The position numbers and the translations under genes were made by a program. A model generated the notes under the pieces. The model was not told the origin of the DNA. It made no database searches and saw only the letters and a list, made by a program, of their open reading frames with translations. This document shows, one piece after another, positions 754-61,472 of a DNA stretch of 64,000 nucleotides. The first letter of the stretch is position 1, and every line of letters begins with the position of its first letter. Location: contig NW_026928590.1 in the NCBI RefSeq assembly GCF_032062105.1, forward strand, positions 186,001 to 250,000. The letters are read 5' to 3'. The stretch comes from Saccostrea cucullata (lineage: Eukaryota).

Positions 754-1095
754 AATCGAAGATTTCAACAAGATCAACAAAAACTATGACTTTGGCATCA
801 ACTACGACTCCATTATCAAATATATTAACGACACTGGATTTATTTACTCATAAAACCAAACCTGGAATTAAAACAACAATTCCAAAAAGAATTTCAACAA
901 AATCACCAATATCAACAACAGTTACAGGAAAAACAAAAATGTCAACAAAATTTCCGAATTTGATAGCCAGTCAACAAACAACATCAAAAGAGATTATGAG
1001 TGAAGTTTTGAATTCTGCTAAAGCAACATTGCCACAACTGCCTTCAACAGAGATTTCTAGATCCTCAAAAAAGACACGTGTTGTTATAACTACTG
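754..1095 (+). CDS. Thr/Ser-rich mucin-like stalk exon of type-I membrane protein (receptor copy 1; 5' exons lie upstream of the window)
   Basis: CAG acceptor at 751-753, GTAAGT donor at 1096; 342 nt, phase 1-1; reads ESKISTRSTKTMTLAST...RVVITT; homologous to exons at 56913-57291, ~45190-46463 and 61149-61472. Confidence 0.7.
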
Positions 1096-1259
1096 GTAAG
1101 TATAAAACAGACATGACACAAAATTAATTTTAAAAAAGTAATGTTACAATCCTAAATTAATTTGATTAAATGCTATAAATACATGAAGGATTTTTAAAAC
1201 TGTATGAGTTATTTACAAACAAGTTAAAGAAAGAAGAAAATCAGAAGTGTCGTTTTAAG

Positions 1260-1555
1260 TCATCATTTTGTAAGTTCTAAAATGGATACAATGACCATAT
1301 CAGCAAATACAATCTATCATGAAATCAAATGCCGACTGATGTTTTTCAAACTCATTGTTAAGCCACTGAATTTTCGACGGATCCCCTTTATTTCCCGATC
1401 ATGACAAGGGGCACACGTCTGGTTTGAACGTTCGACAGAGTATTCTCACATACCATGGTACCTGATCCCACATCTGAACCCAAGTTTTAGAGCTCTGCTC
1501 CATACGTTGTATTGTTTAATGAGCTTAGGGGTTGAGTACTGTTCGTTATCTCCAT
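1260..1555 (+). mobile_element. Penelope-like retroelement 3' fragment (degenerate)
   Basis: Similar to the RT C-terminus and tail at 13690-14465 and 44440-44690 (aagttcta...aaatacaatct...cctgatccca). Confidence 0.5.
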
Positions 1556-4322: not shown

Positions 4323-4430
4323 ACCTACAACGTACGATAAATTCAGAAATACCGAACTCGTCAAACACAACGCTGAATGCTGTAACGTCAACAGAAACAA
4401 GCACCTCGTTTGTTCTCAGTCAAGAAATTG
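4323..4430 (+). CDS. Membrane-proximal stalk exon of receptor copy 1
   Basis: tttcag acceptor, GT donor at 4431; 108 nt, phase 1-1; (D)LQRTINSEIPNSSNTTLNAVTSTETSTSFVLSQEI; clear paralogue at 58798-58902. Confidence 0.7.
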
Positions 4431-4736: not shown

Positions 4737-4821
4737 TGATTCTGATGGCGGGAATTGGAGTAGTAGAAGTGACGATAATAATTGTTGGTATCCTGGCAGT
4801 CAAGAGATGTAGAAAGCAAAG
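4737..4821 (+). CDS. Transmembrane exon of receptor copy 1
   Basis: atacag acceptor, GTAAGA donor; VILMAGIGVVEVTIIIVGILAV followed by basic stop-transfer KRCRKQR; phase 1 to 2, matching both neighbours. Confidence 0.75.
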
Positions 4822-4963: not shown

Positions 4964-5279
4964 AAACAACACGACAAGACACGGTAAAGAAAATGACGGT
5001 CGACCTGTCTCCAGAAAGACAGTCTGTAGTATTGATAACGTATATGCCACGATTCCAGAGGAGGAATTCGATGAGAATCCATATAAAGATCTCTCTGAAG
5101 GGGTGTATGATACCACCTCGAAAAGGCGTTCTCATGTTAATGGTAGCTGGAACGAATATTCCAGAGGAAGTTTTTATTCTCGTTTGTTTCGAAGTTCAAA
5201 AATTATCGAAAGAAGGTCAGTAGAGGAAATGCATCCAATGTTTTCAACATTCCGAGACACGAAAAAGGAAACAAAGTAA
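4964..5279 (+). CDS. Cytoplasmic-tail terminal exon of receptor copy 1, with multiple Tyr motifs
   Basis: ctatag acceptor, phase 2 restores ORF 4908..5279; contains YATI, YKDL, YDTT, YSRG, YSRL; ends in TAA. Confidence 0.72.
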
Positions 5280-9215: not shown

Positions 9216-9255
<40 letters not shown>

Positions 9256-9585
9256 TGAAATAGTATTCGATTAAGGTACATATATCAGTGATAAGTTGGA
9301 TGCAAAAGTGAGAGAAAAAATTTGTTATTTAATTTTTTGTCAATATAAACGGCACGGTATTTTTCTTCATCCTTATTATACGTATTAGGAAAAAATTGCA
9401 TTTATTTGAAAACCCACCAAAACACAAGTCGTGTAAATTGAGAGGAAAGTTCAGTTAAAAAACACCTGTTAAATTATAGCACATGTATAGAACATTTCAA
9501 TAACAAGGAAATTAACACATTTACGTGTTAGTGTAGTATCTGCTTACTTTATATGCTAGGAAGTAAATACCATGGTATTATAATA

Positions 9586-10426
9586 TACTGACACGCAAAA
9601 GAAACGCAACACCCTACTTTAGGAAGAAATAATTATGTGAGGTGAAGAATTTTGTATCTTAAAATTATGAATATCTTCAATTAGGTAAACATCGCTAATT
9701 TAACGGTTGAAGATTTCCATACCAAAACCGGAAGTCAAGTTTAAGTCTGCTTAACAGAAAACAAAAATTGCGTCTTTAACAAAACATTTGGCAATATTAT
9801 GGTGTTTTAAGGGTATTTTACTGTCCATCATAAGTAATGCAGCAATATTTCAAAAAATAAACTATCCTTTCGTTTCCCGTAACGATGCTAAGGCTACTTG
9901 AAAATAGCTTATGTACGCATTTCAATTGCTCTAGCTGGAAAATTTTAATGTAAAGGTGATGGAGAGTTGCTGAAGTGAAATTTCACTACATTACGCCTAA
10001 ACAAAGTCTTACGTATCATATGCATTCAAGACATTCTTTGTACCGGAAGTCCAAGGATGGCTACACTGCTCTAAGTTAGAGAAAATTCGACCTAATCTTC
10101 TAAAAAAACGGGCATTTAAAAATGCCAAAGAATAATTCTTTCGCTCAGATTTCGATATAAATGAACCTATTTTATCGTAGAAATTCAGCTGCAATTGTTT
10201 TTTAGGGCAGTCTTGCAAGTTTTACTTGAATGGCTGGGAGGGGGGTGTTTAAACAGTCATATTTTACTTAGTAAAGTAAAGTGATAAACATTTAACATTT
10301 TTATCAAATCTCTGATGTTCTGAAAAATGAGTTTAGACTTACTTTATTCGCTTTTGAAAATCATAAGATAAAAATATTAAAACATTTGTAGATTACTGAT
10401 TGTTGCGTTTCTTTTGCGTGTCAGTA
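9586..10426. mobile_element. Tc1/mariner-type MITE, copy 1
   Basis: 25-bp TIR TACTGACACGCAAAAGAAACGCAAC at both ends, flanked by TA; homologous over its length to 48209-49036. Confidence 0.85.
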
Positions 10427-10602
10427 TATAAATGTCCCAAGGATAAGTACATGACCAAGTGCAAATGTCAAATTCGTAGAAAAAAATCTTTGGCTTCATT
10501 TGAATTCTGTAACTGTTATTAAAACATCACTTCATTTAGAATCATAAATGAAGAAGTTGTTATAAAAATAAAATCTCAAATGAAAAAGTAAAACAAAATG
10601 CA

Positions 10603-18269: not shown

Positions 18270-19113
18270 AACAAGAGGCCCACGGGCCTTATAGGTCACC
18301 TGAGCATCATGCAACAACATTCAAATGATTGAATTTGTTTCATGTTTTAAGCTAGATGCTAAGGCATTCACAATTTTGGAAGAGGCACTCTTGCTATTCA
18401 TAACTATGTACTTAGTTAGTTTATTTAAAACCTAGGAGCAGAGAAGAAGATTTTCAAAGATTTAATGCATTTTCACTATATAATCAATAGAGCCCCGCCC
18501 TAACACCAGAACCCCTGACCCTGGGGCCATAAAATTCACAATTTTGGTAGAGGCACTCTTGCTCATCATAACTATGTACTTAGTTAGTTTATTTAAAACC
18601 TAGGAGCAGAGAAGAAGATTTTCAAAGATTTAATGCATATTCACTATATAATCAATAGAGCCCCGCCCTAACACCAGAACCCCTGACCCTGGGGCCATGA
18701 GTTTCACAATTTTGGTAGAGGCACTCTTGTTCATCATAACTATTTACTTAGTTAGTTTATTTAAAACCTAGGAGCAGAGAAGAAGATTTTCAAAGATTTA
18801 ATACATTTTTACTATATAAACAATAGAGCCCTGCCCTAACACCAGAACCCCTGACCCTGGGGCCATGAGTTTCACAATTTTGGTAGAGGCACTTTTGCTC
18901 ATCATAATTATTTACTGAATTAGTGTATTTAATACCTAGGAGCAGAGAAGAAGATTTTCAAAGATTTAATGCATTTTTATTATATAATCAATATAGAGCC
19001 CCGCCCTAACACCAGAACCCCTGACCCTGGGGCCATAAAATTCACAATTTATGAAGAGACACTCTTGCTCATCATAACTATGTGCTTAATTAGTTTATTT
19101 AATACTCAGGAAC

Positions 19114-19146
<33 letters not shown>

Positions 19147-19732
19147 GCACTATATAATCAATAGAGCCCCACCCTAACACCAGAACCCCTGACCCTGGGG
19201 CCATAAAATTCACAAATTTGGTAGAGCCACTCTTGCTCATCATAACTATGAACTTAATTTGTTTATTTAATACCCAGGAGCAGAGAAGAAGATTTTTAAA
19301 GACTTACTGCATTTTCACATATAATCAATAGAGCCCCGCCCTAACACCAGAACCCCTGACCCTGGGGCTATGAATTTCACAATTTTGGTAGAGGACTCAA
19401 TGCTGATTACAATCATACCAACAGTTTGACTGCTTGATGTCCGGGAGTAAAGAAGAAGATTTTTAAAGATTGCACTATTTTTAGTGGTTTTTGCCCCACC
19501 CCCCAGGCCCCAGGGGGGCGGGGACCATGAAATTCACAATTTTTGTTCCCCTTCACCCATAGATGCTATATGCCAAATTTGGTTGAAATTGGTTCAGTGG
19601 TTTCAGAGAAGAAGCTGAAAATGTTTAAATGTTAACGCACGACGCACGACGCACAACGCACGACGGACGACGGACGACGACGGACAAAAACGGATAGCAA
19701 TAGGTCACCTGAGTTTACTCAGGTGACCTAAT
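18270..19732 (-). mobile_element. Helentron-type non-autonomous element carrying a 168-bp satellite array
   Basis: TAGGTCACCTGAG subTIR at both ends with IR at 19701-19730; GACG/GACGCAC microsatellite at ~19636-19686; AGGCCC-AC-GGGCCT terminal hairpin. Confidence 0.85.
18371..19545. repeat. Tandem satellite, ~7 copies of a 168-bp monomer (resembles the oyster ~166-170-bp satellite family)
   Basis: caattttgg anchor at 18371, 18539, 18707, 18875 and onward, period 168. Confidence 0.9.
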
Positions 19733-20816
19733 AAGGCTTTAGATCCGCTCACATACTTGCTTTACTTATATCTAACAGCATCCCATAGAGGGTCACGTCA
19801 GAAATCAAATTCGTAACAGCTCTAGACTTATACGCTTATGTTGCTAGATGTTACATGTAGTGTAGCGAGTAAGCAAACAGATATAACATCTAATTTGAAT
19901 AAGATTGACTCAGGCTTTGCTGTTTTTCAAGAAGAATGGTTTTCTATGTAATCCTATTTAAAACTAAGTTCCCCCATCCTGGCATTACTCTACCAACAAG
20001 GGTCATGGCTTGACAAAAATCTTAATCTACACTATGTCAGGAGGCTTTCACATAAGTTTCATCTTGAGAGGAAGTTTTTAAATTGACCCTATCAACTTTT
20101 TTTTCATCATTATCTCTTAATGGAAGAGGACGTGGCCCTTCGTTTGAATGAATTTAAACCCCCCTTTACCAAAGGATACACTAGTTGCAACTGGACCATA
20201 GGAAGATGAAATTTAAAGAATTTTATAAAAAGAACAACAAAGACAACGACGAACAACAGACAATTTTTTTCAGAAAAATCACATGAGCCTCTGGCTCGGG
20301 TGAGCTAAAACTCAAATATCATGAATGTAATCAATTTACCAATTTTCCATTTGCTCTTGCAGTTTTAAAGTTATTTTTATGTTATAAAATATATTTCTTA
20401 AAAGTACATAATAGAGCTAATACTTTTCTAATGCTTTAAAATTATAAAATGTGATGCTAAATTCTCATAACGTTTTACATTTCAGCATTTTGAAAAGCAG
20501 GGTATTTAAATCTCCGTCTAGACAAGGAAGTTTAAACATCCGACAGGTAAATAACACAGGTATGTCGCGTGATCAGACAACAGAAATAAACATAGGTGTC
20601 CACCATTACTGAACTGTCAGGTAAAAAATTACTGAAACATTAATTAGTCTGAAATCATTTAAGTTTAGTAGGTTTTCACCATGGAGAACAAAATTCATGA
20701 ATTTCCTAAGTCCATCTTAGATGCAAGATGGATGTCTTCATTTAACTTTTGTAAATATTCCTACTAAGAATGTAAAGTTTTTACTTTCAGATTGATAGAT
20801 ACCTTTAAAATTAATC

Positions 20817-23221: not shown

Positions 23222-24430
23222 CTCCCAACACCATTTGTCTGGAGATATCAAAAAGTTCACATTAATTTTACATTTACACCTGTTATTTAACTGGAAGAAT
23301 CAAAACAAATCGTCTAACCGATCTGCAAAGCTCAGTATCTGGACAACTGCAATAATTAGGATCTTGGTTCAGATTTTTGTATTTAAGTTTCACATTCCAA
23401 ACTTTTCCATCACTTCCTGGGTTTGATTCCGAAATTTGTGCCAGTTTCCATTGACCATGCACATTATATGAATCTAGAACAAATACAATGTCACCATTTT
23501 GAATGTTTCTCCTTTCATAAAGCCACTTCTGTCTTATGATAACGGTATGCCAGAAATCTCGTGTCCATCTTTTCCAAAATGTATCCACCACACGCTGAAC
23601 AAATTTCCATCTTATTCTGGGGACCCTGCAATCATCCCAGTCTCCTACAGGGACTCTGGTGCTTGCCTTACTTAACAATATATCGTTAGGACAAAGATAT
23701 GTATCTTCAATATGGTCGCAATTCTTAGTACCAATGGGATGTTCATTAAAAACTAAAAGTAAAAATATTTACAACTTTTTGCAATTCTTTCCCGACAGCA
23801 ATTAGTTAAGGACCTGCATCGGAAATCAATTTTCTGGGATATCCCCTTGGATATCCCCTGATGGAAACAAAACGTTGCAGTACCATAAGGAAACTGATCA
23901 TATCAATTCATTCTGCTACATCAATATATAGTGCTCTTGAAACTAAGCAATTAAACAAGACACCATAACTTTTCCCATGGGTCCTCTTCTTAATTGCGTC
24001 CTTGATTACGAGAGGTCCAAACAAATCAACAGCACACATATAGAAGGGAGGGATCAGTTTAAGTCTTGTCTCTGGCACTGGACCCATCTGACTTTGCATT
24101 ATTTGAATTTTCTTCTACATATTACACACCTTTGATATTTGGGAACGGATAATTGCGGAATCAGGAAATTGAATTACTCTCTGAAATGTAAAAGTCATAC
24201 TTTCCACAATTGTTTCTCTTGTTCTAGCTGACATCACAGCACAGCACCGCAAAGGTCAAGCCTTGAAATGGAAAGTTGCTCCATTGGCGCAATCCAATTT
24301 TTTGCAAAAATTAATCTGACTTCATAAGTGTCTCAAGCAGTCTCCAATCTTACGTACACACACGCTCCAAAAGCAAGATTGCTGCCATCAGAAAAAAAAC
24401 CACCAAGACTGGATTTCCAAAGACAGTAGG
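23222..24430 (-). mobile_element. BEL/Pao LTR retrotransposon pol remnant (RNase H, integrase, C-terminal DUF5641-like region)
   Basis: FSDGSNLAFGACVYVR...AKNWIAP...SRLDLCGAV; AVDLFGPL...KSYGVLFNCLVSRALYIDV; VDTFWKRW...KW....NIQNGDIV...WKLAQI...PGSDGKV...RSVRR; many deletions. Confidence 0.85.
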
Positions 24431-30380: not shown

Positions 30381-30480
30381 AAAAAACAGAAACTTTAAAA
30401 TTAATGAAGGAAAACTTATTGTCATTCCCTTTAAACGAATATCTCAGGCAAAATCACATCTCATCTTATCGAAAAATTCA

Positions 30481-41100: not shown

Positions 41101-42151
41101 GAAAGATTTTGGTAACCTTTTAAAGGAATTATGGCTTGGTAAGTGAAATTGTCCTTCGAATTAAAAAAATAAAAATGAAAGCATTTTCAATCAAATTTAA
41201 ACTGATACTTGTGTATTTAGATAGATTTTTTATGTACAGGGAACGACAATATTCATGCTCTTACTAAAAATGGTGACCAAGAGCTCCGAATAGAAATGTC
41301 AAAATTTTCAGGATCAAAGGTTTTCGCAAAGTACTCCCAATTTTCTATTGGTGATGAATCAAAAAAGTACAAACTGTCGATCAGTGGATACAGTGGGAAC
41401 GCTGGTAATTACAATTCATATTAATATAATTATTAGGCAAAATGTTTTATTACAATCCAAGAAAGTAATAGGTCCTGCAACTTTTGAAATAAAAAAAATA
41501 ATTATAACAAAACAAAACAAAAAAAAATTGATAAAATTGTACTGAATTCCCCCCCCCCCCCCCTTTCAAATGTACTTCAATTAATAAACACAAAAATCAA
41601 TCTAATCAAAAACTGACTTAAGAATACGTTAAGATAAGTTATATTGATAAAAAACATATCTAGAGTTTTCCATGGTCTGCTCAATTTTACATTTGGTGTT
41701 TAAAGTATTTTGTTTTAAAATAATTAATATACTTACTAATATCTGTCTAGTAGGAAAGGTTTTGTCAAGAACGAAACATTTCCAAAATAGCCAATATATA
41801 GTTCTTTTAAATTTATAACCTTATATTACTCGAAGTTGTGCAGTCTACATAGAATATTAAAGTTTTAAAATTATTAACATTTTTATTAATTTACAAGGTG
41901 ATTACATAATTGCTAAACACAACTTGAATGGAATGGGTTTCACAACCAAGGACAAGGATAACGACAATAATGGTAGTTACAATTGTGCAAAGAAATACAA
42001 GCATGGTGCTTGGTGGTACAACACTTGTGCTTACTCTGACCTAAATGGACAATACACACACAAACAAATAAGCTCCAAGTACCATTTACATTGGGGAACG
42101 TCACGAGAAAACATGAAAACATCCAGGATGATGATAAGAACAAAATCCTGA
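38168..42151 (+). CDS. Secreted fibrinogen-related domain (FReD; ficolin/tachylectin-5-like) protein, 6 exons: 38168-38243, 38540-38677, 40337-40476, 41042-41138, 41240-41404, 41898-42151 (870 nt, 289 aa)
   Basis: All GT-AG junctions phase-compatible; signal peptide MDLLIPLLILLMGNVYG; FReD motifs NCADI, [61 protein letters not shown], NCA...GAWWYNTCAYSDLNG, MMIR. Confidence 0.92.
39230..39490 (-). mobile_element. Penelope-like tail fragment in FReD intron 2
   Basis: gaggtaggatcaggtgccatggaggagtgagcatcccctgccgaccggtcacacccgccgtg, shared with 42340-42660 and 42740-42930. Confidence 0.6.
40003..40204. mobile_element. ~200-bp fold-back MITE in FReD intron 2
   Basis: ggcccaaaaaccataaactgagaa...ttaagtcaaa / tttgacttaa...ttctcagttcatggtttcggggcc. 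Confidence 0.65.
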
Positions 42152-45189: not shown

Positions 45190-46463
45190 AAAGAATTTTA
45201 AATATATATTCAAATAAAGTATCGAAGATTTCAACAACAAAAAAGAAAACAAGTATGAAAACTTGAACAACAATACATTACCACAGACATCAACATAACG
45301 CGAAATGTAATAACAACACAAAGTGTAATAATTATTTCACTTTGCGTTGTACTCAACGCAGAATGTAATAACGCAAATTGTAACACTCTTTAGGAATATT
45401 ACATTTTGCGTTCTTACATTTTGCGCCGATACCAATGCAATATGTAATAACAAAAAATATAATAAAACGATTTTTACCTTTTGCGATGTTACATTTTGTG
45501 TCAATAATAAGCAAAAGAACAAACTCAAAATTTAATTTAATTTTTTGTCAGCCATGTTAAGTATAATTTTCAAATGAGTAATTGGCGAAAAAAAAAACTG
45601 GAAAAAAAATAGAACAAAAGGAAAAAAAAAATTAACATTTGTGAAATCTTAAAAAAAGATCAGATTTTTACTTCTTTTTTATTTCATTACCTACATGCAT
45701 TTAAAATCAGGTTAAATTCAAATCTATTGTTTTCAAATAAGACACCTGCATATGGGGGTTGTTGGGGGGGAGCAAAATTTTGTTGTTTAGTGTGCTTTTG
45801 CTTTTTGATAGACAAATGCAATGAATCTAAAAAAACTATAAAAAAAAGAAATATAATTTGTACTGGCATATGTAAATGTATAGCGGGGAGGGGGTTATTG
45901 ACAATTGGGATTCTATACTCTTTAAAAATCTCCCACTCTCTCTATCACCAAAAATAAAATGCTTGTCCATACATGTAGTAATACAATGATCAACATACGA
46001 AATAAACATGCATCCGACCCCATTCCTGCCCCTCCTCGCCTAACGATTTGCAAAAATCTTTTTATTACATTATGCATTATTACTTTTCGCGTCAAGATCA
46101 ATACAAAATACAATAATCTCAGTTTATTACATTTTGCTTTGTCATTACATTGACGTTGTAACATGCGAAAAAAGTGACAAAGAAAGCTACACAAAATCAC
46201 TTCTTCAGAAAACGGAACATAGAGTTTAAACAAATTGAGGAAATCTTTCAAGAAAAGCGTCTTAAATAATAGAATTTACAAGAAGAACATATCAACAAAT
46301 GTCCCGAATTTGACAGCTACTCAACCAATAGCTTCAAAAGAGTTTTTGAATAATATTTTTGAGCTTTACACTATTAACGTTGTACAGTTCATGATGACTG
46401 CAATCAACAGCAGCGATAGACAGCACCTCAGAAACAGCACCTGTTATTACGTATAAACTACAG
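45190..46463 (+). pseudogene. Orphan mucin-stalk pseudo-exon of the receptor family, split by a MITE
   Basis: tcgaagatttcaaca start and aactacag|GTAAG end match the other stalk exons; stops and frameshifts. Confidence 0.6.
45293..46163. mobile_element. MITE with AATGTAATAA-type terminal and subterminal repeats
   Basis: aacgcgaaatgtaataac ... cattacattgacgttgtaa; related fragment at ~14490-14615. Confidence 0.55.
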
Positions 46464-47841: not shown

Positions 47842-48208
47842 ACTGTCAACTAAATGTATACTAGCCCATTCACATGGGAAACACTATCAACGCTCTTTAC
47901 CTCAGAAATGAAAATCAGTGTGACCTTTGATATAATGCCTGTACCTTCAACAAATCACATTATTCGTTTCCCCATTTAAGAATATAAATAGATTCTGAAC
48001 ATACATGTGACTATATTTGTTGCTTGTACATGTACATTGTAACGAGGCTAGATTTTTATATATAATTTAGAATCCTATCAGAAGAAAACATGTTTACTGT
48101 CAAGTTATTTTGTGTGTCAGTAGTTGCTACATATTGTTTCAGTAAGTATTAAAAGACTTTTGTATCTTTCTTGCGATTTTTCAAATTTCTTTTTTGTATA
48201 TGTAAATA

Positions 48209-49036
48209 TACTGACACGCAAAAGAAACGCAACGCCCTACTTTGGGGTGAAATAATTATGTAAAGTAAAAAATTTTAAATCTTAAAATTATGGATATCTT
48301 CAAATTGTTAAATAATGGTAATTTAACGGTTGAACGATTTTCATACCTTAACCAGAAGTCAAGTATGATTCTGCTCAACAGAAATCAAAAATTGCATGTT
48401 TAACAAAACATTTGGCAAGATTATATAGTTTTAAGGGTTTGTGCTGTTCATCTTAAGTAATGCAGCAATATTTTAAATAATAAAATCTCCTTTCGTTTCT
48501 CGTAACGATGTTAAGGCTTCTTGAAAATAGCTTAAGTGCACATTTCCATTGCTCAAGCTGGAAAATCTCAAAGTAAAAGTGATGGAGAGTTGATGATGGA
48601 AAAATACACTACATTACGCCTCAATGGGGTCTTACTTATTATATTCATAAATGATAGCCCTTGGACCGGAAGTCCAAGGGTTATTACAATGCGCTAAGTT
48701 AGAGAAAATTCGACCTAATCATCTGAAAAACAGACAATTAAAAAATGGAAAATAATAATTCCTTCGCTCAGATCTCGATATTGATAAACCAATTGTATCG
48801 TAGAAATTAAGCTGCTTATGTTGTGTAGGACAGTCTTGCACGTTGTAATTGAATGGCTGGGAGGGGGGTGTTTTAAAAGTCATATGTTACTTAGTAAAGT
48901 AAACATTTAACATTTTTATAAAATCTCTGATGTTCTCAAAAGTGTAGCCTTACTGTATTCTTTTTTTAAAAAAACACTAGAAAAAGAATCAAACATTTAT
49001 AGATTACCACTTGTTGCGTTTCTTTTGCGTGTCAAC
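48209..49036. mobile_element. Tc1/mariner-type MITE, copy 2
   Basis: Same TIR as 9586-10426; right tip mutated (gtcaacata). Confidence 0.85.
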
Positions 49037-49204
49037 ATATTTGAATGAGGTAAAGAACAGTTTGCATTTTCAATGCAAAAAAATTATTACACTTACGAGG
49101 GCTGTCCGGTGAAATCGAGGACCGGTTGCCAAAAGTAAAAATAATCACCACTGCATAGAAATATTTTCACACCTCTTTAGTACATTTTTTCATCAATATA
49201 CATG

Positions 49205-49826
49205 TGTAACGTGCAACGCGGCCGAGCTTGGTTGTTTGGTGATATGTCTTGTATCACCGAGGCGTTACACTCTGGTTCGTTAACCTGTTAACTCAGGTTT
49301 TTGTTGACCAAATAAAATTACAATCAAATATATACAAATACAATACAAATATAAACGGTTTCCTCTTGATTGGACAACCACTAACTGTGGTCAACGGGTG
49401 TCTCCCGTAAGTAGATTTCTTCGGTCCTGCCACTTCTCCCTGTACTGACTCCTGGCACTTCCCCCACTTCTCACTGTGGTATGCCACCTCTCTCAATCTA
49501 TACTACCAAGTGACTGCCTTATTCAGGTCTTACGCTTTTGGGTAGTCTACAACACTTAGATGTCTATCCCCCGCAACTGTCTGCCTTATTCAGGTCTTAT
49601 GACCGTGTGTAAGAGGAGAAACAAGCTAAGGTTTCACAACTCCGTCACCAGAGAGGTCTCAAAGGTCCTGCAATACAATCAGTATTATTCCAATGCAGTC
49701 TCCGTATAGTAGCAGATTCATACTACTTGTATGATTGTAAAATTAATATTTTTTAGTGTTTAAGAATTAAGTGGAAACGTAGGTCTAACGTTTATACGAA
49801 AATAAACCTCACCCATTTCCGTTTCA
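49205..49826 (-). repeat. 3' LTR
   Basis: Direct repeat of 54868-55489; preceded on the minus strand by PPT GAGGGGAGGGTAG (49827-49839). Confidence 0.97.
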
Positions 49827-49928
49827 CTACCCTCCCCTCAAGATTATATGCGTCCCGCATATGATTAAGTATTTACAATATTTACATCTATATACAATTC
49901 TCTGATATGCCTGACAACTTGTGACTCT

Positions 49929-51128
49929 CTAATACAAGACGTAGTCTTCCATCCACTGTGGTTTTCTCCTACGTCTAACAGGGATGTCGTCTGCATCAGA
50001 ATGGTTACTTAACTCATGCTCTTCCTCTACTTCTTCACCCAGAGGTTCAGGCTCGTCCTCTGGTGCCGTCCTCTCATCATCAGGCGTTTCACCTTGCAAC
50101 GTTTGAGGGTACCTTCGACGCATTCTGTCAACATGTATGACTTGTGGTTTTCCACTACGTCCACAGTCAACTTTGTAGGTAAGATCTGTCATCTTTGATA
50201 GCACCTTGTAAGGACCACGCCAGTAACTGGTAAACTTTGGCGAGCGACCTGCCTTCCTAATTGGAAAGAACACGTAGACTTGGCAACCTGGCTCAAATTT
50301 CTGCCATGACAATTTTTGGTCGTGGTACTTCTTTTGTCTAACCATGGCTGTTTTTATGTTCTCTCTGACATGTTTGTGTGCACTCTCCAATGTTTCTTTT
50401 AATTCCCAGGCCCACTTGTCTTTGGGAATTTGCTGCACTGATCTGGGCATCTCAAACATGATGTCAAGCGGTGTTGACACTTCTCTTCCCAGCATCAGGT
50501 AATTTGGAGTATAGCCAGTTGTCTCGTGAACGGAAGCCCTGTAAGCCATCATTACAAATGGTAGGTGTTTATCCCAATCTGAATGATGGTCATTCACGTA
50601 AGCGCTTAACATTGTCACTAGCGTCTTGTTAAAACGCTCTACCATTCCATCACTTTGTGGATGATAGGGGCTGGTCCGTGTTTTCTTGATTTGGAGAACC
50701 TGGCACATCTCCTCAAAAAGCGCACTCTCATACTGTCGACCTTGGTCAGAGTGAATTACTGATGGTACACCGAACCGGGCAATCACTTCTTCAACAATAA
50801 GTTTTGCCACTGTCTTGGCTTCCATGTTCGGCATTGGGAAAGACTCGGTCCATTTCGTGAAATAGTCCGATACCACCAATATATATTTATTGCCATCCTC
50901 TGTCATTGGTAGTTCTCCCAAGATGTCCGTGGCAATCCTGTCCATGGGTAAACCACTCTCGACCAATTCCATGGGTGCTCTTCTCTTCATTTGAGGGCCC
51001 TTCCTTTTACAACATTTCTCACAACCAGCTATGTACATTCTGGTGTCTGCTTGCAAACCAGGCCAATAGAACTTTTGCCTTATTCGAGCTAGTGTCTTGC
51101 TCACACCAAGATGTGCAGCTGTCCTCAC
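49929..51128 (-). CDS. pol: Gypsy integrase (distal part of disrupted pol)
   Basis: AHLG...CEKC zinc finger, TDILG, SDQG, MVERFN, GPY motif. Confidence 0.93.
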   Translation of the reverse strand: MRTAAHLGVSKTLARIRQKFYWPGLQADTRMYIAGCEKCCKRKGPQMKRRAPMELVESGLPMDRIATDILGELPMTEDGNKYILVVSDYFTKWTESFPMPNMEAKTVAKLIVEEVIARFGVPSVIHSDQGRQYESALFEEMCQVLQIKKTRTSPYHPQSDGMVERFNKTLVTMLSAYVNDHHSDWDKHLPFVMMAYRASVHETTGYTPNYLMLGREVSTPLDIMFEMPRSVQQIPKDKWAWELKETLESAHKHVRENIKTAMVRQKKYHDQKLSWQKFEPGCQVYVFFPIRKAGRSPKFTSYWRGPYKVLSKMTDLTYKVDCGRSGKPQVIHVDRMRRRYPQTLQGETPDDERTAPEDEPEPLGEEVEEEHELSNHSDADDIPVRRRRKPQWMEDYVLY

Positions 51129-51402
51129 ATCCTGACAGTACTCGTATATAGTACGTCGTTAGCTACTTGTTACAATAGCCTGCAAGCGTATGGCCTTTCC
51201 ATCTTCCTCTTTAAATCTTATAAACAGAATGTCATTTTCAATACAAAGATTGTTCCATTATGACCATAAAGATTGTAACACATAACCTTGGCCTCTGACC
51301 ACACTGTACTCAGGTCTTGTCTTTTCTATGACCCAAAGTTTGACAAGAGAGATGTCTTTGTCTTTGTCTTGCATGTCTTTTATAGGCAGCAATGGATCGC
51401 CA

Positions 51403-54400
51403 TCAATCGTCATTTGATTCACTGGCTTGGGATATAGCTCTCACTTCTTCCGGCTTGTTACATTGCAATCCTTTCTCCCAGTTTGGATCGAAACCACACT
51501 GGCGACATGGCACACGGCTCAATGCATCTGCATTGCTGTGTTGTGTACCTGGTCGGTGTTGTATCTCGAAATTGTATGTACTGAGGATTTCCAACCAACG
51601 TGCCAACTGTCCTTCTGGATTCTTAAATTTGAAAAGCCACCTTAAGGAGCTATGGTCTGTGCGGACTATGAACTTTTTACCATAGAGGTAATGCCTAAAG
51701 TGTTTGACAAAGTGGACCACCGCGAGCAATTCCTTTCGTGTAACGCAGTATCTGCGCTCACACTTTGTCAAAGTCCGACTTGCATAAGCAACAACCCTCT
51801 CTTGACCATCAATCTTTTGAGATAAGACTGCCCCTATAGACACATTACTGGCATCAGTGTCTAAAATGAAGGGATGAGAGAAATCTGGATGCCTTAAGAT
51901 CGGAGTATTGGTCAGCTTATGTCTAAGAGTGTCAAATGCCTCTTGGCATTCTTTAGACCAAACAAAGGCACGACCTTTCTCTGTCAGCGTGTGTAGGCAT
52001 TTTGCAATCCTTGAGAAATCTTTGATGAATCTCCTATAATAGCTGCATAGCCCCAGGAATGAGCGTACCTCAGTGGCATTAGTAGGTACTGGCCATTGTT
52101 TTACTGCAGCTGTTTTGTCTGGGTCAGTCGCTACACCTTCCTCTGACACAACATGTCCCAGGTAAGTCACCTTCTTGGCAAACAAGCAGCATTTCTTGGC
52201 TTTGAGTTTAAGTCCTGCATTTTGCAGTCTGTCAAAAACTCTTCTAAGGTTTGCCAACATTTCCTCAAAGGTTTTGCCTGTCACTATCACGTCGTCCAGG
52301 TAAACAAGACAGATATCCCAGTGAAGGCCGACCAAAACACTTTCCATTAGGCGCTCAAAAGTTGCAGGAGCACAACATAAGCCGAATGGCATGACCTTAA
52401 ACTTGAAAAGTCCACGACGTGTGGCAAAGGCTGTCTTTTGTTTGTCGTCTGACTCCAACTCTACCTGCCAATATCCTGAGCAGAGATCTAGAGTAGAGAA
52501 CCACGAGCTTCCACTCAACTGATCCAGTGACTCGTCTATTCTGGGAAGGGGGTATGCGTCCTTGATTGTACAGCTATTTAACTTGCGGTAATCAATGCAA
52601 AAGCGGAATGTACCGTCCTTCTTTTTGGCTAATACAATAGGCGCTGACCACGGGCTGTTGGATGGCTCGATCACACCTCGTTCCAGCATATCATTCAGCT
52701 GTTTGTCAACCTCCTCTGTAAGATGAGCGGGTACTCTCCTTGGTGGTATTTTGATAGGATGGTTGTCCCCAGTATCAATTCTGTGTTTGACAATACCTGT
52801 GCGCCCAAAATCTTTATCAGATTTTGCAAAAAGATTGGTATATTCATACAAAAATTTGTTAGCTTCCCTTTTCTGTTTCCGTGTCAAGTGGTTCGAAGTT
52901 TTCTTCAGCATGTCAACCAAATCAGGTCTTAACTTCTTAGGTTTGCTTGACGTATTCTTTTCTTGTGACTCCGCCACTCTGACTTCACTGAGTTGTCCAA
53001 TGACCGTACCCGGGTAAATGACTTTGGATTCCTCGCCAACATTGAGCAAACGGACTGGTACCGTCGCTTGTGGTAAGACCAATGTTCTGGCTGTGATGTA
53101 GCCTTCTCTTGGCATGTCAGACACAAATGGTTCTACCAAACATGTATTCCTTAGAACATGTTTGCAGTCCTTCAAGACTTGTCCCTGCGTGATGATCTCA
53201 CTTCTAGGAGGAATGCTGACTATCTTTGTTGCGGTTATTCTGTTGCAGCCTATGTAACCCTCAACAAACATTGGTATTATCTTATCTCTTATGTGAAGCA
53301 CCTTTTGACTCATGTCCACCGTGCATGCATTAGACAGCAGAAAATCAAGCCCCAGTATTCCATCTGCCTGGATCTCCGCAATGACAGTAGTCGTATGCGT
53401 TACCATACCCTCAATATTAAGTGTTAAGTCCGCCTTACCCTTGACAGACAGCTCACTTCCATTGGCTGCTAAGATACTCTGGTTAACCTTCTGCAGCTTT
53501 GGCCTTATGTTCTCTGCAATTTTCTCGTACATTGCTGAGGACAACAATGTCAGTGTTGCCCCTGTGTCAACCAGGAATTTAGCTTGGGCACCTTGCACAG
53601 AGATATCTATGTACATGCCTGCTTCATCCAGGGAAGATCCAACACCAATTGATCCACTAGGACAGGCTGACGTCTGTTTACTTCGTACTGGCCTGCCTAA
53701 TCCCTTTTTGTCTTTGGAATCCTTGTGTTCACTTTCACAAGGTCGTTTCTTTAGCTTTGGGCAGTTGCGCTTTATGTGGCCTTCCTTGTTACATTCATAA
53801 CAACGCAATGGTTTGCCTCTTGCTTGTTTGTCATTAGCTCTATTGACTGACCGTTTCAGCTTTAGTTTGTGAATCTCGTTGGTTAAGGTACTCATGTTAG
53901 CCTCCATGGACTTCATCCATGTTTCAAGACTGGTCTGGCTAACCTCTGAAGATGAGTGTTCTGCTGTCGATACTCGTAAATGGCCTTTTCCTTCAAGGTT
54001 TCTGCTCTCTGCACGATTATAAGTCTCGAGTTCGACGGCTAGCCGGATGGCTTCATTCAGGTTATGAGGACGAGATTGTTTGATGCGGATCCTCATTTCT
54101 GAATCTACCAAGGCATCTATGAACGCATCTTTGGCCAGAGTTTCTCGTACATCACCAGGTGCTGATGCGTAGGCCAAATTGGTTAGTCGTCTAATGGCCT
54201 GACCTAACTCTGGTATGGACTCAGATGCTCTTTGTCTTCGCTCTTTTAGCTGAACACGATACAGATCTGTTTGGTTAGGAGGGGAGAACCTCTCCTCAAG
54301 GGATCTGACCAGTGTATTATAGTGCTGACCAGTATCGCTTGGCAAGTCACCTAACACTGACTGTGCTTGGCCACGCAGTGATACAGCTAGGTAAAGACCC

Positions 54401-54843
54401 TTCTTATCCTCTGTCCAGCCGTTAACAACAGCACAAGCCTCAAAATGTGACTTGTAGTCAAGCCAGGAACTGGTTCCGTCATACGTGGCTGACTTGATTA
54501 TATGGCCTGTCTTGGCATTGTCCGTCCCTATTGCCTGTCTCCGTGGTTTTGGCGTGTCAAACAGATGGCCCGTCACAATGTCGTCAACCCCAGCATGTGG
54601 TGTAAAGCTTGGTTTGCCTTCGTCTGGAAATCTAACTTTAGGCCGTGCGCCGTACTCGTCAAATGACACATCTCCTGACATATCGGCCGGTTGATAATCA
54701 GTACTGCGTGTCGCATATCCAGACTCTTGGCTTGCCGCATTTGTCTGACCATCGTTGCTGGTTGGCGTTCTCATCCTTTCTAAGAGCCTCTCCATCCGCT
54801 CGATAGTTTCTGACACTTTCTTATGTGAATCCATGGTCAACAA
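51403..54843 (-). CDS. pol: Gypsy gag-pol polyprotein (gag, CCHC knuckle, protease, RT, RNase H), truncated by a frameshift
   Basis: CYECNKEGHIKRNC; LVDTGA; LDLCSGYWQV, MPFGL, YLDD; DTDAS...ELLA...TDH. Confidence 0.95.
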   Translation of the reverse strand: MLTMDSHKKVSETIERMERLLERMRTPTSNDGQTNAASQESGYATRSTDYQPADMSGDVSFDEYGARPKVRFPDEGKPSFTPHAGVDDIVTGHLFDTPKPRRQAIGTDNAKTGHIIKSATYDGTSSWLDYKSHFEACAVVNGWTEDKKGLYLAVSLRGQAQSVLGDLPSDTGQHYNTLVRSLEERFSPPNQTDLYRVQLKERRQRASESIPELGQAIRRLTNLAYASAPGDVRETLAKDAFIDALVDSEMRIRIKQSRPHNLNEAIRLAVELETYNRAESRNLEGKGHLRVSTAEHSSSEVSQTSLETWMKSMEANMSTLTNEIHKLKLKRSVNRANDKQARGKPLRCYECNKEGHIKRNCPKLKKRPCESEHKDSKDKKGLGRPVRSKQTSACPSGSIGVGSSLDEAGMYIDISVQGAQAKFLVDTGATLTLLSSAMYEKIAENIRPKLQKVNQSILAANGSELSVKGKADLTLNIEGMVTHTTTVIAEIQADGILGLDFLLSNACTVDMSQKVLHIRDKIIPMFVEGYIGCNRITATKIVSIPPRSEIITQGQVLKDCKHVLRNTCLVEPFVSDMPREGYITARTLVLPQATVPVRLLNVGEESKVIYPGTVIGQLSEVRVAESQEKNTSSKPKKLRPDLVDMLKKTSNHLTRKQKREANKFLYEYTNLFAKSDKDFGRTGIVKHRIDTGDNHPIKIPPRRVPAHLTEEVDKQLNDMLERGVIEPSNSPWSAPIVLAKKKDGTFRFCIDYRKLNSCTIKDAYPLPRIDESLDQLSGSSWFSTLDLCSGYWQVELESDDKQKTAFATRRGLFKFKVMPFGLCCAPATFERLMESVLVGLHWDICLVYLDDVIVTGKTFEEMLANLRRVFDRLQNAGLKLKAKKCCLFAKKVTYLGHVVSEEGVATDPDKTAAVKQWPVPTNATEVRSFLGLCSYYRRFIKDFSRIAKCLHTLTEKGRAFVWSKECQEAFDTLRHKLTNTPILRHPDFSHPFILDTDASNVSIGAVLSQKIDGQERVVAYASRTLTKCERRYCVTRKELLAVVHFVKHFRHYLYGKKFIVRTDHSSLRWLFKFKNPEGQLARWLEILSTYNFEIQHRPGTQHSNADALSRVPCRQCGFDPNWEKGLQCNKPEEVRAISQASESNDD

Positions 54844-54862
54844 AATCCCACCGCTGCCACCA
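54844..54862 (-). promoter_or_regulatory. Primer-binding site complementary to the tRNA-Leu 3' end
   Basis: Minus strand TGGTGGCAGCGGTGGGATT, 5 nt from the 5' LTR; plus strand reads AATCCCACCGCTGCCACCA. Confidence 0.85.
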
Positions 54863-54867
54863 AATCA

Positions 54868-55489
54868 TGTAACGTGCAACGTGGCCGAGCTTGGTTGTTT
54901 GGTGATATGTCTTGTATCACCGAGGCGTTACACTCTGGTTCGTTAACCTGTTAACTCAGGTTTTTGTTGACCAAATAAAATTACAATCAAATATATACAA
55001 ATACAATACAAATATAAACGGTTTCCTCTTGATTGGACAACCACTAACTGTGGTCAACGGGTGTCTCCCGTAAGTAGATTTCTTCGGTCCTGCCACTTCT
55101 CCCTGTACTGACTCCTGGCACTTCCCCCACTTCTCACTGTGGTATGCCACCTCTCTCAATCTATACTACCAAGTGACTGCCTTATTCAGGTCTTACGCTT
55201 TTGGGTAGTCTACAACACTTAGATGTCTATCCCCCGCAACTGTCTGCCTTATTCAGGTCTTATGACCGTGTGTAAGAGGAGAAACAAGCTAAGGTTTCAC
55301 AACTCCGTCACCCGAGAGGTCTCAAAGGTCCTGCAATACAATCAGTATTATTCCAATGCAGTCTCCGTATAGTAGCAGATTCATACTACTTGTATGATTG
55401 TAAAATTAATATTTTTTAGTGTTTAAGAATTAAGTGGAAACGTAGGTCTAACGTTTATACGAAACTAAACCTCACCCATTTCCGTTTCA
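54868..55489 (-). repeat. 5' LTR
   Basis: Direct repeat of 49205-49826; 3 substitutions seen by eye. Confidence 0.97.
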
Positions 55490-58400
55490 CATGTATATAG
55501 AAAATTTCAATTAGATATATGTTCAAAATTTTAAATTTTATGTTATGTGTGATATCGCTTGAAGACTCAGTACATATTTGAGTTTGAGTTAAAAACGCTT
55601 TATCCACGATTTTAGCGGCCAATCTTCGTATACTCGGTTCAACAAAATATTAATGTTCAAATCTTAACTAAATATTGGAATTATAGACTGAAGAATAAAA
55701 AATATATAACTTTGTATAAAAAGTGGTATTTTCTTCGTAAACATTAATTTATACTTTGATCAATATATTTTATAGATACTTCTTTCGGAGTTCGCACTAT
55801 ATCAAAGAAAGTAAATCTGCCTTTATCTGAGGAGATTACTATTACCTCACCAGGATATCCACGGAATAACTACGAAAGCAACACAACTTATACATGGATA
55901 GTGACAGCACCTGACGTAACAGAGGAGATAAATATCAGGATAGTATTGAATGTTCACCAAACTGCAGGATATGCATGTTATGACTACTTGAAGGTTTTTA
56001 CAATCAATAATATATGTTAGGTCTAAATTATAACCTTTAAAATGAAAATCAATCCGACATACTAAGTAATTATACCAGACAGGGTTTTTCTATTGGTTTA
56101 TGTTGGTTCTTTCATAATAAAAATACCTTAGTATTTTTTTCTAGAGAAAATATATGTATAAAGTATTTATCTTGCAATGTCTCATATTGAAGCGATAAAA
56201 ATAATATAAATTAATATCTCTTAAGCAAAAAAAATGTAAATTGTGTCCCTGTTGTAATGTAAAGTTGAAAAACGCTTTTTACTAGATAGAGGAAATCACA
56301 AACAATAACTTCATGCTCTTTAAACAATGTGGGAGACGAACAACAAATAGAATAGCAAGAGGAAACAAACTAATGATCATTCTCTGTACTCGAATTTCGA
56401 CATATTTACGGGTAAAGGTTTTCGGCTACGTCTTAAAGGTAAGTATCTTAATCATTCTTGTCAATTTCTCTGTATTTAATAAGCTTTTCTCCTATCTGAT
56501 ATTTTAATGAAAATACTTGGAAAATCATTTTTAGGCACCAAAATAACATAACCTAAATGTTATAATGCACGCACATTCTACAGATAATCTCATGTCAAGA
56601 ATAAATGAAACATTTGAACCAATTGTTTTCTATTTAAATATGATTTGAAAACATACTTACTAGTTGTATGTCATTTATTTTTTGTATATGTGTTACATGA
56701 TATCTCCAGTCTTTTGGCCCCCTATCTGTAGATTTGTGTGAAAAATATATTCTAATATGTATCATTATTCATAATTATAATTTTCATTTGTTAAGCGGTC
56801 TCTGATTTGTAATTTTTTGTCAGTGATAAGAAATTAAGAAATTTAACTACATAGTTCCCTTTAGCGTTATTTTTCTTTTCAAGTTTTGTTCATATTCTTT
56901 ATTTAATAGCAGTCTCGAAGATTTCAAAAAGACCGACAACTTTAGCAACAACATTACGATTGTCAAAGATAATAACGACAGCTGCAGTGATAAAAACGTC
57001 ATGGACAACATCAACTAAAACATTATTTCCTCAAAACTCCAAAACCTGGAAAAAAACAATTCCAAAAAGAAAATTCAACAAAATCCCCTTCAACAAAAGA
57101 AATTACAACAAGAAAACAAACAAAACCAACTTTTGCAGAATCGACAGCTGCTCAACTAACAACATTAACAGAGATTACGACTGAAGTTTTGAGTTCTTCA
57201 CTAGTAATATGGGACAGTTCAATGCTACCACTGTCTTCTACAATAGAGAATGTAGGAACCTCAAAAACGACAATTGATGATATAACTACAGGTAAGAAAG
57301 AGACGAAGAGGACATCAGTATAATAATATTAACAACTAATTTTACAATCCTAATCTGATCAGATTAATAAAATACATACTAGGGCTCCTTTAAATTAATG
57401 CTTGTTTTCTGACTTAAAAAAATTGCATCGGAGCTACAGGTAAGTGGGTTTCTTTTCCTAAAAACATACATACCAAAGAAATGAGATATTTTTGGTGCAA
57501 TTTTTTTTTAATAAAGCGACATTCGAAGAGGGCTGTAATTAAAATGATAAAAGGGTTTTAAATTTATCGATTTTGCTTAATTTCATTAAATTAACTTAAA
57601 TACATGTATGGTTATAGTATGGTATGTTTTGATAAGACATAATAAACAATGGTTTTTTTTCTTTGTCTTCCCAAGAACAAAATTATGAATTGCTTATCTT
57701 TAAAATCATCATAAAAGATCAAATTAAAAAAAAATTAATCTAAAAATGTGAAATCAAATTAATTGCAGATTGTGTAACGTCACTCTCGAGAAGTTTTCAC
57801 GCATACCGTTTAAGGGCCCCTAAAACATTAGATAAAGAAGTATGAAAGATGAATTTCATAAATCCGGTACACAAAACACAAATCGTGAGAATTTGCAAAA
57901 TCACGGACCGTTGAAAAAATCAGAGATGGGATCAGGTGCTTTGGAGGAGTATTAAGCATCGCCTGTTAACCAGTTATTAACCATTTAACCAGTTAATTTA
58001 AATCGTCCTTACAGTGCGTTGCCCAATCAAGGAATGCCGCAAACGATTCGGACCCCTGAAAAATCCCCGGGGAATCAAATATTCAAAGACCAATTAAAAG
58101 CGCGCATTCCGAGGTATGCAGAATGATGCAGAGTAAACTGCAGATAAAATTTACTCGCACTGAGTCATGTTTCATTTCCGATAATAGATTACGCGTAAAC
58201 TCTAGATGCTTGGGTTGAATAACAATATGACAAATACAAAATAAAATACTTATATCTAAACTTGTTGTCCTAAACTATTTCATTTTCCCATAAAATTAAT
58301 TATTAGACAAAATATGACTTAAGGATAGGCTGTATTCAAAAACAGGGTCGTAAAATCTTCCTTAGAATTTAAGAGAAGCTGAGTTTAAGGTATTACACAA

Positions 58401-61148
58401 TATATAGATAATTTTTCTTCAAATTCTTTCATATTTTGTTATAAGATACTTCTCTACTTATGCCTCTTCATAATATGAAAAAAAATATAACCGCGCGTTT
58501 TTGCCCCAAAATTTAAATTGATGAAGAAAAAAATTGGATAAGCGTATATTTAACATTTTAATTTTATTGAACCCATGGCAAACGAGAATAAACTTTCCGA
58601 AAATCTTTAGAGCTATATATTGAGAAGACATTTTAGGTTTTACTTAATGCATGTACTACTTTATTTTAGGAAATTGTATAATTGAAAAACTCGATTTTAT
58701 TTTTGGATAAGCAAAGCACTCGATATTTCTTTCATAGAGGGGAGTTTTCAAACATTTTATTTACAAAGGCGATAAACATTTTTGACTTGGCTTACAGACT
58801 CGCAACATATGATAGATTACGAAATAACAAATTCATCAAACATAACACTGAATGCCGTAACATCAACAGAAACCACAACATTTATTTTCAAACTAGAAAT
58901 GGGTTTGAAAATGAAAATCCTTTACTATTTTTCTATGTTTCAGAATAAATAAAATGCATATATATACCTTTTTTTTCTTTGTGTTCTTTATACTTGCATA
59001 TATCTTAATTTGCTGATATTACTCATCAATTGAAAAAAATAATAATACCGATTCTGATAAAAAAGAAAAATTGCATTCTTCATCGTTGGTGTTTACAATT
59101 GTTTTAAATTGTTAAAATAAAGCTATGTAAGAATTGTTATAATACCCGCTCTTAGTCCAAGTCGGATATAAAGCCGTTACCCTTGTCCGTCTGATGGTCT
59201 ATCTGTCGCACTTTCTTCTTCATCTAACTATTCGAATATTTTAAACAGAATTCAATTAATCTAATAAATTATGATAAATGGTTTCCTGTAGATGTGCGAT
59301 AATGTTTTGATTTCATTTTCACCCTATGGGGTAATGGATCTGAACAATTACTTGCATACTTGTAATGAAGAAAAATCTTTCGTCCCCGGCACTGAGGTAT
59401 GCTTGTTTTACTATATTTTCCCTGATTACAAAACTTTGACCACCTTGTGTGGCCCCAACCTACCCCGAAATGTCATGCTTTGGACAAAGTTGAATCTACA
59501 CAAAGTAAAGAAGTATCAGATTATTTCAAAATTTTCTGTTGTATCAAGTTAAATTTGTGCTTTGCAAAAATAAGACATTGCAACTATGTATGTTTTAAAT
59601 GTGCTTAATGAGAACTGTTTCAATGAAATATAGGCTACAAATGAATGAATTCGTTAGATTTGATGGTCAACTTTGATTACACTTGTACACTTGGCAGAAA
59701 TTGTCGAACTGCTGCAATGCTGTCATAATTTTTACGTGTTTAAAGACAGGAAGTGGTTTAACAGTTCTTGGGTCAATGTTATAGTTAAATCTGAGGATTG
59801 ATGCTGGACTGCTGTAGGTAGTTGTATGGCATATGAAAAGACTTGTCTGAATCTGTGCCACTGAAGACGAGTAAGAGAAGCAGCTATAAAATTATTCCCT
59901 CTTCTAATATGCCGACCTTTAAATTGAATGCATGAGGACCTTCAAGACCAAAACCCTTAACAGATACATAGCTCTGTGTGATTTCGATATTTTAATGTTT
60001 AAAATGGTGACAAAGGTACTATTGTTAGAATGTAAAATATTTCGCTTTCTCTCAACTCATCTCCCAAAATACTATGCAGACAAGGTAATTGCTTGAGTAC
60101 CGATTACAAAAACGTAATGCCTTTAAATATTTTAGTCCCTCGCCATGATTTTGGCCATGTCAAAAAAGCCAAATGAGTTTCACAAATACCCCGACACCCT
60201 ATTTCATATGAACCAACGCTATGTGTATGCAACTCTAGTTAAAACTAGCTGGTCTAGTATACTTTCTTATATAATGTAATATAATTCCTATATAACGACT
60301 GAAAGTTTCTAGTAACATTTACTAATCTGTTAGTTTTCTGGTAGTAAAGTAACAGTCACTGTGACTGTATTAATAAAACCTAAAAATACCAATTTATTGT
60401 AGGACTTGTCTGGTGGAATTAGTGGACTACATGATCAAATTGAATCTTGTTTTATTTATGGTTTATAAATGGACTCAAACTTTACGAATGAGCATGTCTC
60501 ACAGTTAATCCGAATGGCATACACTTGTCAATATGAATATTTTTGTTAATTTTGTACCCCTTCAACTTAAAATCAGAGGTGTAGGCTGGTAGCTATAGGA
60601 TAGCATTTTTAATGTCTAAAAGAACAATGAAAGTTCCTAAGCCTAACCGTTCCAACATACTCAAAGTTTCAGCAAATAATTTGTATTTAACTAAATAATA
60701 GTGGGGATCAATGAAGTCATTCACTCTATCACCAAACAGGTCGACAAATGCTTAATAAAACGAAAAGAACCATCTTTTGTTAAGTTCCAAACCTATATCG
60801 GGGTACAGTCTAAAGTTGAAAATGGAAAACAGAAAAATAAACCAACAACCCGGCTTAAATTTATTTCTTAGTTGCTAACGGTATGGCTTCTATAGTAAAT
60901 AAATTCTTAGACTTAAAATTTTACAGTTGTATGGCTGTCTAGAACCTTAGTAATATATTAAAATCAAAGTGAAACCCTTGCGATAATCATGCGCATTTAC
61001 TGTGTCTGGAAAATTAGTTCAAAATTCTGATAAAACTTAAGTCGTGATGGGACTGTATGCAATAGTACAACAAAGGTACGAAAACATTGAAATAAACCAA
61101 ATATGTTTGGTTTATATTTTGGAAGTTGTTGTCGATGTAAAATATAAG

Positions 61149-61472
61149 AATCGACAAAGAAACTGGAGGAAAGTCTGAAAGCAATACATAACCAAGAAAC
61201 CATTCTTTCCAAAACAAAAGCTCGAGTAAAAACGAGTTCGAGTAAAGTAAAAAAAAAAATAACAAAAACATCTTTAACACTAGAATTTACAACAATAAAA
61301 AAATATATCAACCAATGTTAGTTATACAGCTTCTCAATCAACAGCATCAAAAGAAATTTGAATGAAATTTTGAATTCTGCATGAACAACTTTGTACAGTT
61401 GACCGAAATTAATACTCTCAACAGCAACGATAGACAAAACATCAGAAACGGCACCTGTTACAATAACTACAG
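61149..61472 (+). pseudogene. Orphan mucin-stalk pseudo-exon of the receptor family
   Basis: gaaattttgaattctgc and gcacctgttacaataactacag|GTAAG match the other stalk exons; stops and frameshifts. Confidence 0.6.

Follow-up and report, generated by a model that had tools for sequence, protein, structure and literature searches.

Intact and broken members of an apparently undescribed tandem oyster gene family encoding CUB-headed proteins with Ser/Thr-rich stalks

What kind of protein, and what kind of locus, is represented by the CUB, mucin-like stalk, transmembrane (TM), and tyrosine-tail exons scattered over a 64,000-nucleotide stretch of the Saccostrea cucullata genome? This whole stretch, here called the window, is G000:C10727:186001-250000 in an assembly of 1.17 Gb and 23,869 contigs. 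An initial annotation, made from the letters alone, proposed a tandem receptor family whose architecture could be reconstructed only by combining two copies. Our analysis suggests that the window holds two members of a tandem oyster family, apparently undescribed, that evolves by birth and death, and that intact members are type I membrane proteins likely serving as signaling receptors, possibly in immunity, a reading to which we assign a probability of about 0.6.

Copy 1 is an intact gene. Spliced from the genome, it has seven exons encoding 423 amino acids with no internal stop, and its six introns are all GT-AG. The signal-peptide exon and two CUB exons (G000:C10727:179522-179573, 179865-180082, and 181520-181670) lie 4 to 6.5 kb upstream of the window, within G000:C10727:179522-181670, so that no second copy is needed to complete the protein; the gene had appeared partial because the window edge cut it, and the proposed composite of copies 1 and 2 mixes two different subtypes. 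Inside the window and on the forward strand follow stalk exon A (754-1095; 342 nt, phase 1-1, rich in Thr, Ser, and Lys), stalk exon B (4323-4430; 108 nt, phase 1-1), the equivalent of which is joined to the TM exon in paralogue contigs, the TM exon (4737-4821; phase 1-2, hydropathy peak 2.64), and the cytoplasmic tail exon, which runs to the stop codon (4964-5279). The stalk is basic, with 38% Ser plus Thr over 150 amino acids, and the single hydrophobic helix, also present as a helix in a paralogue model, has a mid-membrane Glu (codon 4766-4768) and basic stop-transfer residues after it. The tail carries, in order, D-x-x-YATI-x9-YKDL (D-x-x-YxxI-x9-YxxL, at 5034-5093), YDTT, which is the third conserved tyrosine motif, and SFYSRL (SxYxxL, at 5169-5186). 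The signal peptide of copy 1 is the least hydrophobic of 17. Its third intron contains a broken extra stalk-A exon (G000:C10727:183165-183310) with a good acceptor and repeat DNA after it, which could disturb splicing.

Copy 2, also on the forward strand, is a broken member of a subtype that lacks a membrane anchor. It comprises a signal-peptide exon (48090-48141; 52 nt, phase 1), CUB exon a (55776-55993; 218 nt, phase 1-0, open, its half-domain matching Pfam CUB at an E value of 0.012), a frameshifted CUB exon b (56286-56438; 153 nt versus 151 in its twin), a frameshifted stalk exon A (56913-57291; 379 nt, not divisible by 3), and a stalk exon B of the TM-less type (58798-58902). Reading on from that exon meets a stop after 15 codons, and copy 2 has neither a TM nor a tail exon before the next gene begins. 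An intact twin at C10727:134.5-138.9 kb is 96% identical over 5.7 kb. Compared with this twin, copy 2 is longer by 2 nt in CUB exon b and, in stalk exon A, by 1 nt and by 3 nt; as the sequence stands, it stops at codon 152. Both the frameshifts and the absence of a TM/tail exon had escaped the initial annotation. An assembly error behind the two frameshifts, one of which sits in an A run, would be an unlikely explanation (~1% for two errors in 0.9 kb), because about 111 of 150 TRIM-like matches, counted by hand, keep open frames of at least 500 codons.

The four stalk exons that had been paired between the copies are real, with AG/GT ends and a phase 1 start, and the pairs are homologous: 4323-4430 and 58798-58902 agree at 80 of 105 aligned positions (score, 128; maximum of 200 shuffles, 47), and 754-1095 and 56913-57291 agree at 243 of 338 bases (score, 310; shuffle maximum, 140). 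The TM, tail, signal-peptide, and CUB exons are likewise present, as are two stalk remnants. One of these decayed stalk-A exons (45220-46463, forward strand) is split by ~0.9 kb of other DNA and has stops in all frames, with its donor site kept; the other (61100-61472, forward strand, start approximate) is of the kind that trails most TM-less members. Two elements occupy intron 1 of copy 2. A Ty3/Gypsy-type LTR retrotransposon (49205-55489, reverse strand) is bounded by a CATG target duplication; its LTRs show 3 differences in 623 bases, the element being young, its pol frame is interrupted between RNase H and integrase, and the twin gene is without it. The second, an unstranded, noncoding element of about 840 bp with terminal inverted repeats of ~29 bp (48205-49040), is 82% identical to a further copy at 9582-10429.

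The architecture proposed for the family, namely, a signal peptide, one CUB domain, a Ser/Thr-rich stalk, a TM helix, and a tyrosine tail, emerges both from spliced copy 1 and from the model of P0001, the product of a gene on contig C8743. Exon 1 plus five codons of exon 2 encode the signal peptide, which terminates in [C/S]-x-G at residue 22 in all 11 intact genes that have the exon, in keeping with the -3/-1 rule for signal peptides. The head has a CUB fold by profile and by model. P0001 scores 25 bits against Pfam CUB (PF00431; cut-off, 21.4), with the half-domains in the window falling below the cut-off on their own, and its AlphaFold2 model has a confident beta sandwich at residues 24 to 143, a disordered stalk (pLDDT of <50 at 156 to 349), a helix at 351 to 389, and a disordered tail. 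A fold search with this model returned the CUB domains of neuropilin-2, TSG-6, PCPE-1, and C1r as best matches. CUB domains have two disulfides, C1-C2 and C3-C4, a pattern from which the family departs: the first Cys is at position -3 of the signal peptide and Tyr replaces C2 in 13 of 13 domains, C3 and C4 being kept in all 13, so that one disulfide is retained. The calcium-binding signature, given as Tyr-Glu-Asp-Asp in the accessible part of PMC10850435, is likewise incomplete when its columns are placed by sequence alignment; Tyr and the first Asp occur in 13 of 13 domains, and Glu (otherwise His) and the second Asp (otherwise Asn) occur in 1 of 13 each. The Ser/Thr content and low pLDDT of the stalk are those of a transmembrane mucin stalk, and we infer that it is O-glycosylated.

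Transcript contigs agree with most of this exon structure. Contigs from three runs (X1, X2, and X3; two studies), presumed to be RNA and aligned at 80% likeness, skip the intron between the CUB exons (X1 and X3), the stalk A-stalk B intron (X1), and both introns that flank the TM exon, stalk B-TM and TM-tail (X2 and X3). Paralogue contigs thereby join 4 of the 6 predicted junctions; the joints listed did not include signal-CUB or CUB-stalk. No contig was assignable to copy 1 itself, the bridging letters being of the paralogue type. Full-length family proteins are encoded on single Logan contigs of 1.4 to 2.1 kb. Among the contigs matching the intact twin of copy 2, none extends past the stalk-B exon, and no TM-less transcript end was seen. 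In the accessible parts of the respective papers, we found no link between the family and the 220-amino-acid “cubilin” hemocyte marker G14441 (PMC12064177) or the “cubilin” transcripts of PMC4133350 and PMC13070813.

The inference of a tandem family with fast turnover holds, and the family, of oyster origin, is larger than the initial annotation saw. Of 25 matches in a CUB-exon search of the genome, 21 belong to the subfamily and 4 are distant; the 21 are distributed over C10727 (9 exons, one of them 6 kb upstream of the window start), C8743 (7), C22314 (3), C7153 (1), and C10995 (1); C8743 and C22314, which carry blocks of 80 to 92% identity, may be second haplotypes or further loci. On an exon-type map of ~620 kb from nine contigs, 9 of the 21 CUB loci have TM and tail exons, 9 do not, and 3 are cut by contig ends or by the limits of the fetched sequence. 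The membrane forms fall into class I (the copy 1 type) and class II, whose tail lacks SxYxxL. The stalk-B end of TM-less genes is distinct, and a decayed stalk-A exon trails most of them; three of the nine are visibly broken, and five keep open CUB exons with a dN/dS of 0.48. The gene order class II, TM-less, class I is repeated on C10727, C8743, and C22314, and blocks of 80 to 96% identity show duplication of multigene units. Along the CUB exons the nearest neighbor switches, even across subtypes, a pattern consistent with segment exchange. Many broken or orphan copies sit amid transposons.

Relatives were found in Saccostrea, Ostrea, Crassostrea, and Magallana (named members in S. cucullata, S. 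echinata, Ostrea edulis, Crassostrea virginica, C. angulata, and Magallana gigas), and a database search found no named tail homologues outside oysters among the best 7,996 candidates scored. Members are entered as uncharacterized, mucin-2-like, mucin-22-like, cubilin-like, MASP1-like, or GPIb-alpha-like, automatic names that derive from one domain only. Most members are absent or fragmentary in public annotation, where the copy 1 tail recovers two full proteins and the CUB region recovers three; three entries are TM-plus-tail fragments of the array. A literature search found no description of the family and no match to six locus identifiers; such a description could still exist in subscription journals or in supplements outside the texts covered. 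A second, more distant array (C4369, C5308, C19330, C10468, C16018, and others; 95 matches) contains CUB-stalk-TM relatives whose CUB domain carries an additional Cys-Cys pair. P0003, P0004 (Ostrea edulis), and P0009 have two CUB domains and models without a TM helix and are possible secreted forms.

Every genuine TM exon in the genome (16 of 16) has a central Glu; a seventeenth, degenerate row matched the text test spuriously and was dropped. Among 149 proteins searched, 45 matched the TM-plus-tail profile, and removing 11 fragments without a TM segment left 34, isoforms and alleles included; 31 of these have the Glu, and 31 keep Y-x7-YD. In the accessible text of two papers, ITAMs are defined with a spacer of 6 to 12 (PMC6994640) and ITAM-type motifs with one of 6 to 9 (PMC9546547). 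Copy 1 and 13 of the 16 tail exons in the genome fit this loose form ([D/E]xxYxx[L/I]x6-12Yxx[L/I], or a spacer of 6 to 9), as do only 0.05 to 0.12% of 20,000 tail shuffles; copy 1, with a spacer of 9, falls outside the strict range of 6 to 8. Outside Saccostrea the spacing changes: the distance between the first and second Tyr is 9 in Saccostrea, 13 to 14 in closer homologues, including Ostrea, and 16 to 18 in the sister subfamily, an overall range of 9 to 18 in which the 6-to-9 rule fits 3 of 34 homologues. An ITIM-like [ILVS]xYxx[ILV] is present in 9 of 16 tails and missing in 7, and 12% of shuffles match it too. Across the homologues, three tyrosine motifs are conserved rather than ITAM geometry, which makes independent SH2 docking sites the safer reading.

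Selection separates the two ends of the protein. In pairwise comparisons of six class I genes, dN/dS was 0.21 (0.13 to 0.33) for TM plus tail and 0.12 for the tyrosine core, versus 0.46 (0.34 to 0.61) for 13 intact CUBs, and amino acid identity in the same six genes was 87% for TM plus tail versus 67% for the CUB. The tail is under purifying selection. Site models, run with our own implementation on a fixed tree and a small sample (IQ-TREE supplied trees only), detected no positive selection in the 13 intact CUB domains (M1a/M2a, P = 0.82; M7/M8, P = 0.13) and no class above 1, with ~45% of CUB sites near neutral. These results show working genes with relaxed heads and count against an arms-race reading.

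Taken as a receptor, an intact member would very probably act through SH2 docking; immunity as its setting is tentative, at a little under even odds. The stalk would be O-glycosylated and hold the CUB head clear of the glycocalyx, ligand binding would cluster chains, probably aided by the buried Glu, and a Src-type kinase would phosphorylate the three conserved tyrosines, which would then dock SH2 proteins such as a Syk-like kinase, an SHP-type phosphatase, or an adaptor. Unequal crossing-over of the multigene unit together with CUB segment exchange would drive turnover of the array, leaving TM-less, orphan, and pseudogene copies behind. The family is a defined, testable candidate for oyster phosphotyrosine signaling with a non-Ig head, and its conserved membrane Glu, tyrosine triad, and three-subtype layout merit follow-up.

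Vertebrates have several single-pass proteins with extracellular CUB domains and one TM helix (neuropilin, CDCP1, DCBLD1/2, NETO, and Kremen), of which CDCP1 and DCBLD carry tails with phosphotyrosine docking sites; neuropilin, Neto2, and Kremen came up in the searches. These proteins contain more than one CUB or additional domains, their genes exist in few copies, and their similarity to the oyster family does not go beyond the CUB domain, with identity of no more than 28%, a likeness that need not imply orthology. The foremost alternative to an immune receptor is modeled on such proteins: like CDCP1 or DCBLD, the family could serve nonimmune adhesion or matrix sensing in epithelia (mantle, gill, or larva), its expansion reflecting a repeat-rich recombining region and not pathogens. 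The lack of positive selection, the near-neutral CUB sites, the drifting ITAM spacing, and the broken and orphan copies among transposons all fit this alternative, and the family would be of modest interest if it turned out to be an adhesion protein that had expanded neutrally. Against it stand the intact fibrinogen-domain gene within the duplicated unit and the mosaic CUB segments and conserved tails under variable heads, which recall Hydractinia Alr as described in the accessible part of PMC9546547; on balance, we regard it as unlikely, though the most serious competitor. According to the same part of that paper, Alr also forms clusters of single-pass receptor genes and pseudogenes, with Yxx[I/L]x6-9Yxx[L/I] and [ILVS]xYxx[IVL] motifs in the tails; unlike the oyster proteins, Alr has Ig and Fn3 heads and tails that diverge more than the heads, and the oyster family has no link to allorecognition. 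Within oysters, CgIgR of Crassostrea gigas is also a single-pass receptor, and the copy 1 tail fits its ITAM definition; as far as the accessible text of PMC6994640 shows, this ITAM receptor was tested for Syk binding and binds Syk, a precedent that favors the signaling reading. CgIgR differs in having five Ig domains, and in the present family the motif spacing varies across oysters.

The membrane Glu is a direct handle on chain assembly. Acidic TM residues mark vertebrate ITAM modules in the accessible portion of PMC13107469, and the oyster helix shares with the CD3, CD79, and DAP12 chains treated there an acidic residue combined with a tyrosine-motif tail. It differs from them in lacking the DxxxT companion motif (the sequence is Glu-Val-Thr, with Thr at +2 and Ile or Val at +4) and in having a long mucin stalk and its own ligand-type head, with no homology. 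A complex prediction with two copies of the TM segment scored 0.03, and a protein atlas search with TM plus tail gave only matches below 0.9, which are leads only. One could envisage an oyster-specific paired-receptor complex built from a repeated set of three CUB-headed proteins: one activating chain, one secreted decoy, and one chain with both activating and inhibitory motifs. Its membrane forms would assemble via the conserved intramembrane Glu, so that oysters would have arrived independently at the combination of acidic TM residue and ITAM seen in CD3, CD79, and DAP12; we consider this improbable. The corresponding assignment of roles, with class II (ITAM-like only) and class I (ITAM-like plus ITIM-like) as paired receptors, TM-less genes as secreted decoys, and CD3-like assembly through the Glu, is likewise improbable: it would account for the order recurring on three contigs, the invariant Glu, and the open CUB exons of five TM-less genes, but block duplication alone gives the same order, a basic-TM partner would be needed, DxxxT is absent, and the TM-less genes include broken copies and yielded no transcript end of their own.

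Every ectodomain exon ends in phase 1, most TM-less genes retain the stalk-B donor, and the donor context is the same in all subtypes. In class I, every TM exon is preceded by an ectodomain of its own. Behind eight TM-less genes there is no shared alternative TM exon (four scattered hydrophobic candidates, none common), and the ~860-bp conserved block found there has indels and no common frame. That TM-less ectodomain cassettes are spliced to a shared downstream TM and tail, as in clustered protocadherins, which would make the two-copy composite a real transcript type, is highly implausible despite the exon phases, the kept donors, and a RefSeq model joining a TM exon and a tail 100 kb apart, given the separate ectodomains of class I, the frameshifts of copy 2, the uniform donor context, and the lack of any TM-less stalk-to-TM joint among the contigs. 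The RefSeq model in question, P0140, joins orphan class II exons (TM and tail) that lie, with no CUB gene attached, at 61.7 kb and 161.2 kb of G000:C10727.

From the neighbors of the two copies, the initial annotation had suggested a possible immune cluster, a claim that is unproven. The fibrinogen-related domain is intact (217 amino acids in four exons, 40337-42151, forward strand), and its gene lies inside the duplicated unit, with a paralogue at ~108 to 115 kb of G000:C10727. Adjacency to the TRIM71-like gene (B-box, coiled coil, and beta-propeller; 20814-22478, forward strand) says little because a first look gave 2,513 candidate sites of this family in the genome and the local gene is frameshifted, near 21143-21216. 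Pieces of a Harbinger-like transposon occupy 31860-35708, with DDE_Tnp_4 and HTH_Tnp_4 on the forward strand and a YqaJ-like open reading frame on the reverse strand, and a DUF5641 open reading frame at 23283-23768 (reverse strand) is presumably a retrotransposon integrase-tail remnant. Tandem satellites with periods of 168 bp and 437 bp lie at 18366-19471 and 28343-30386.
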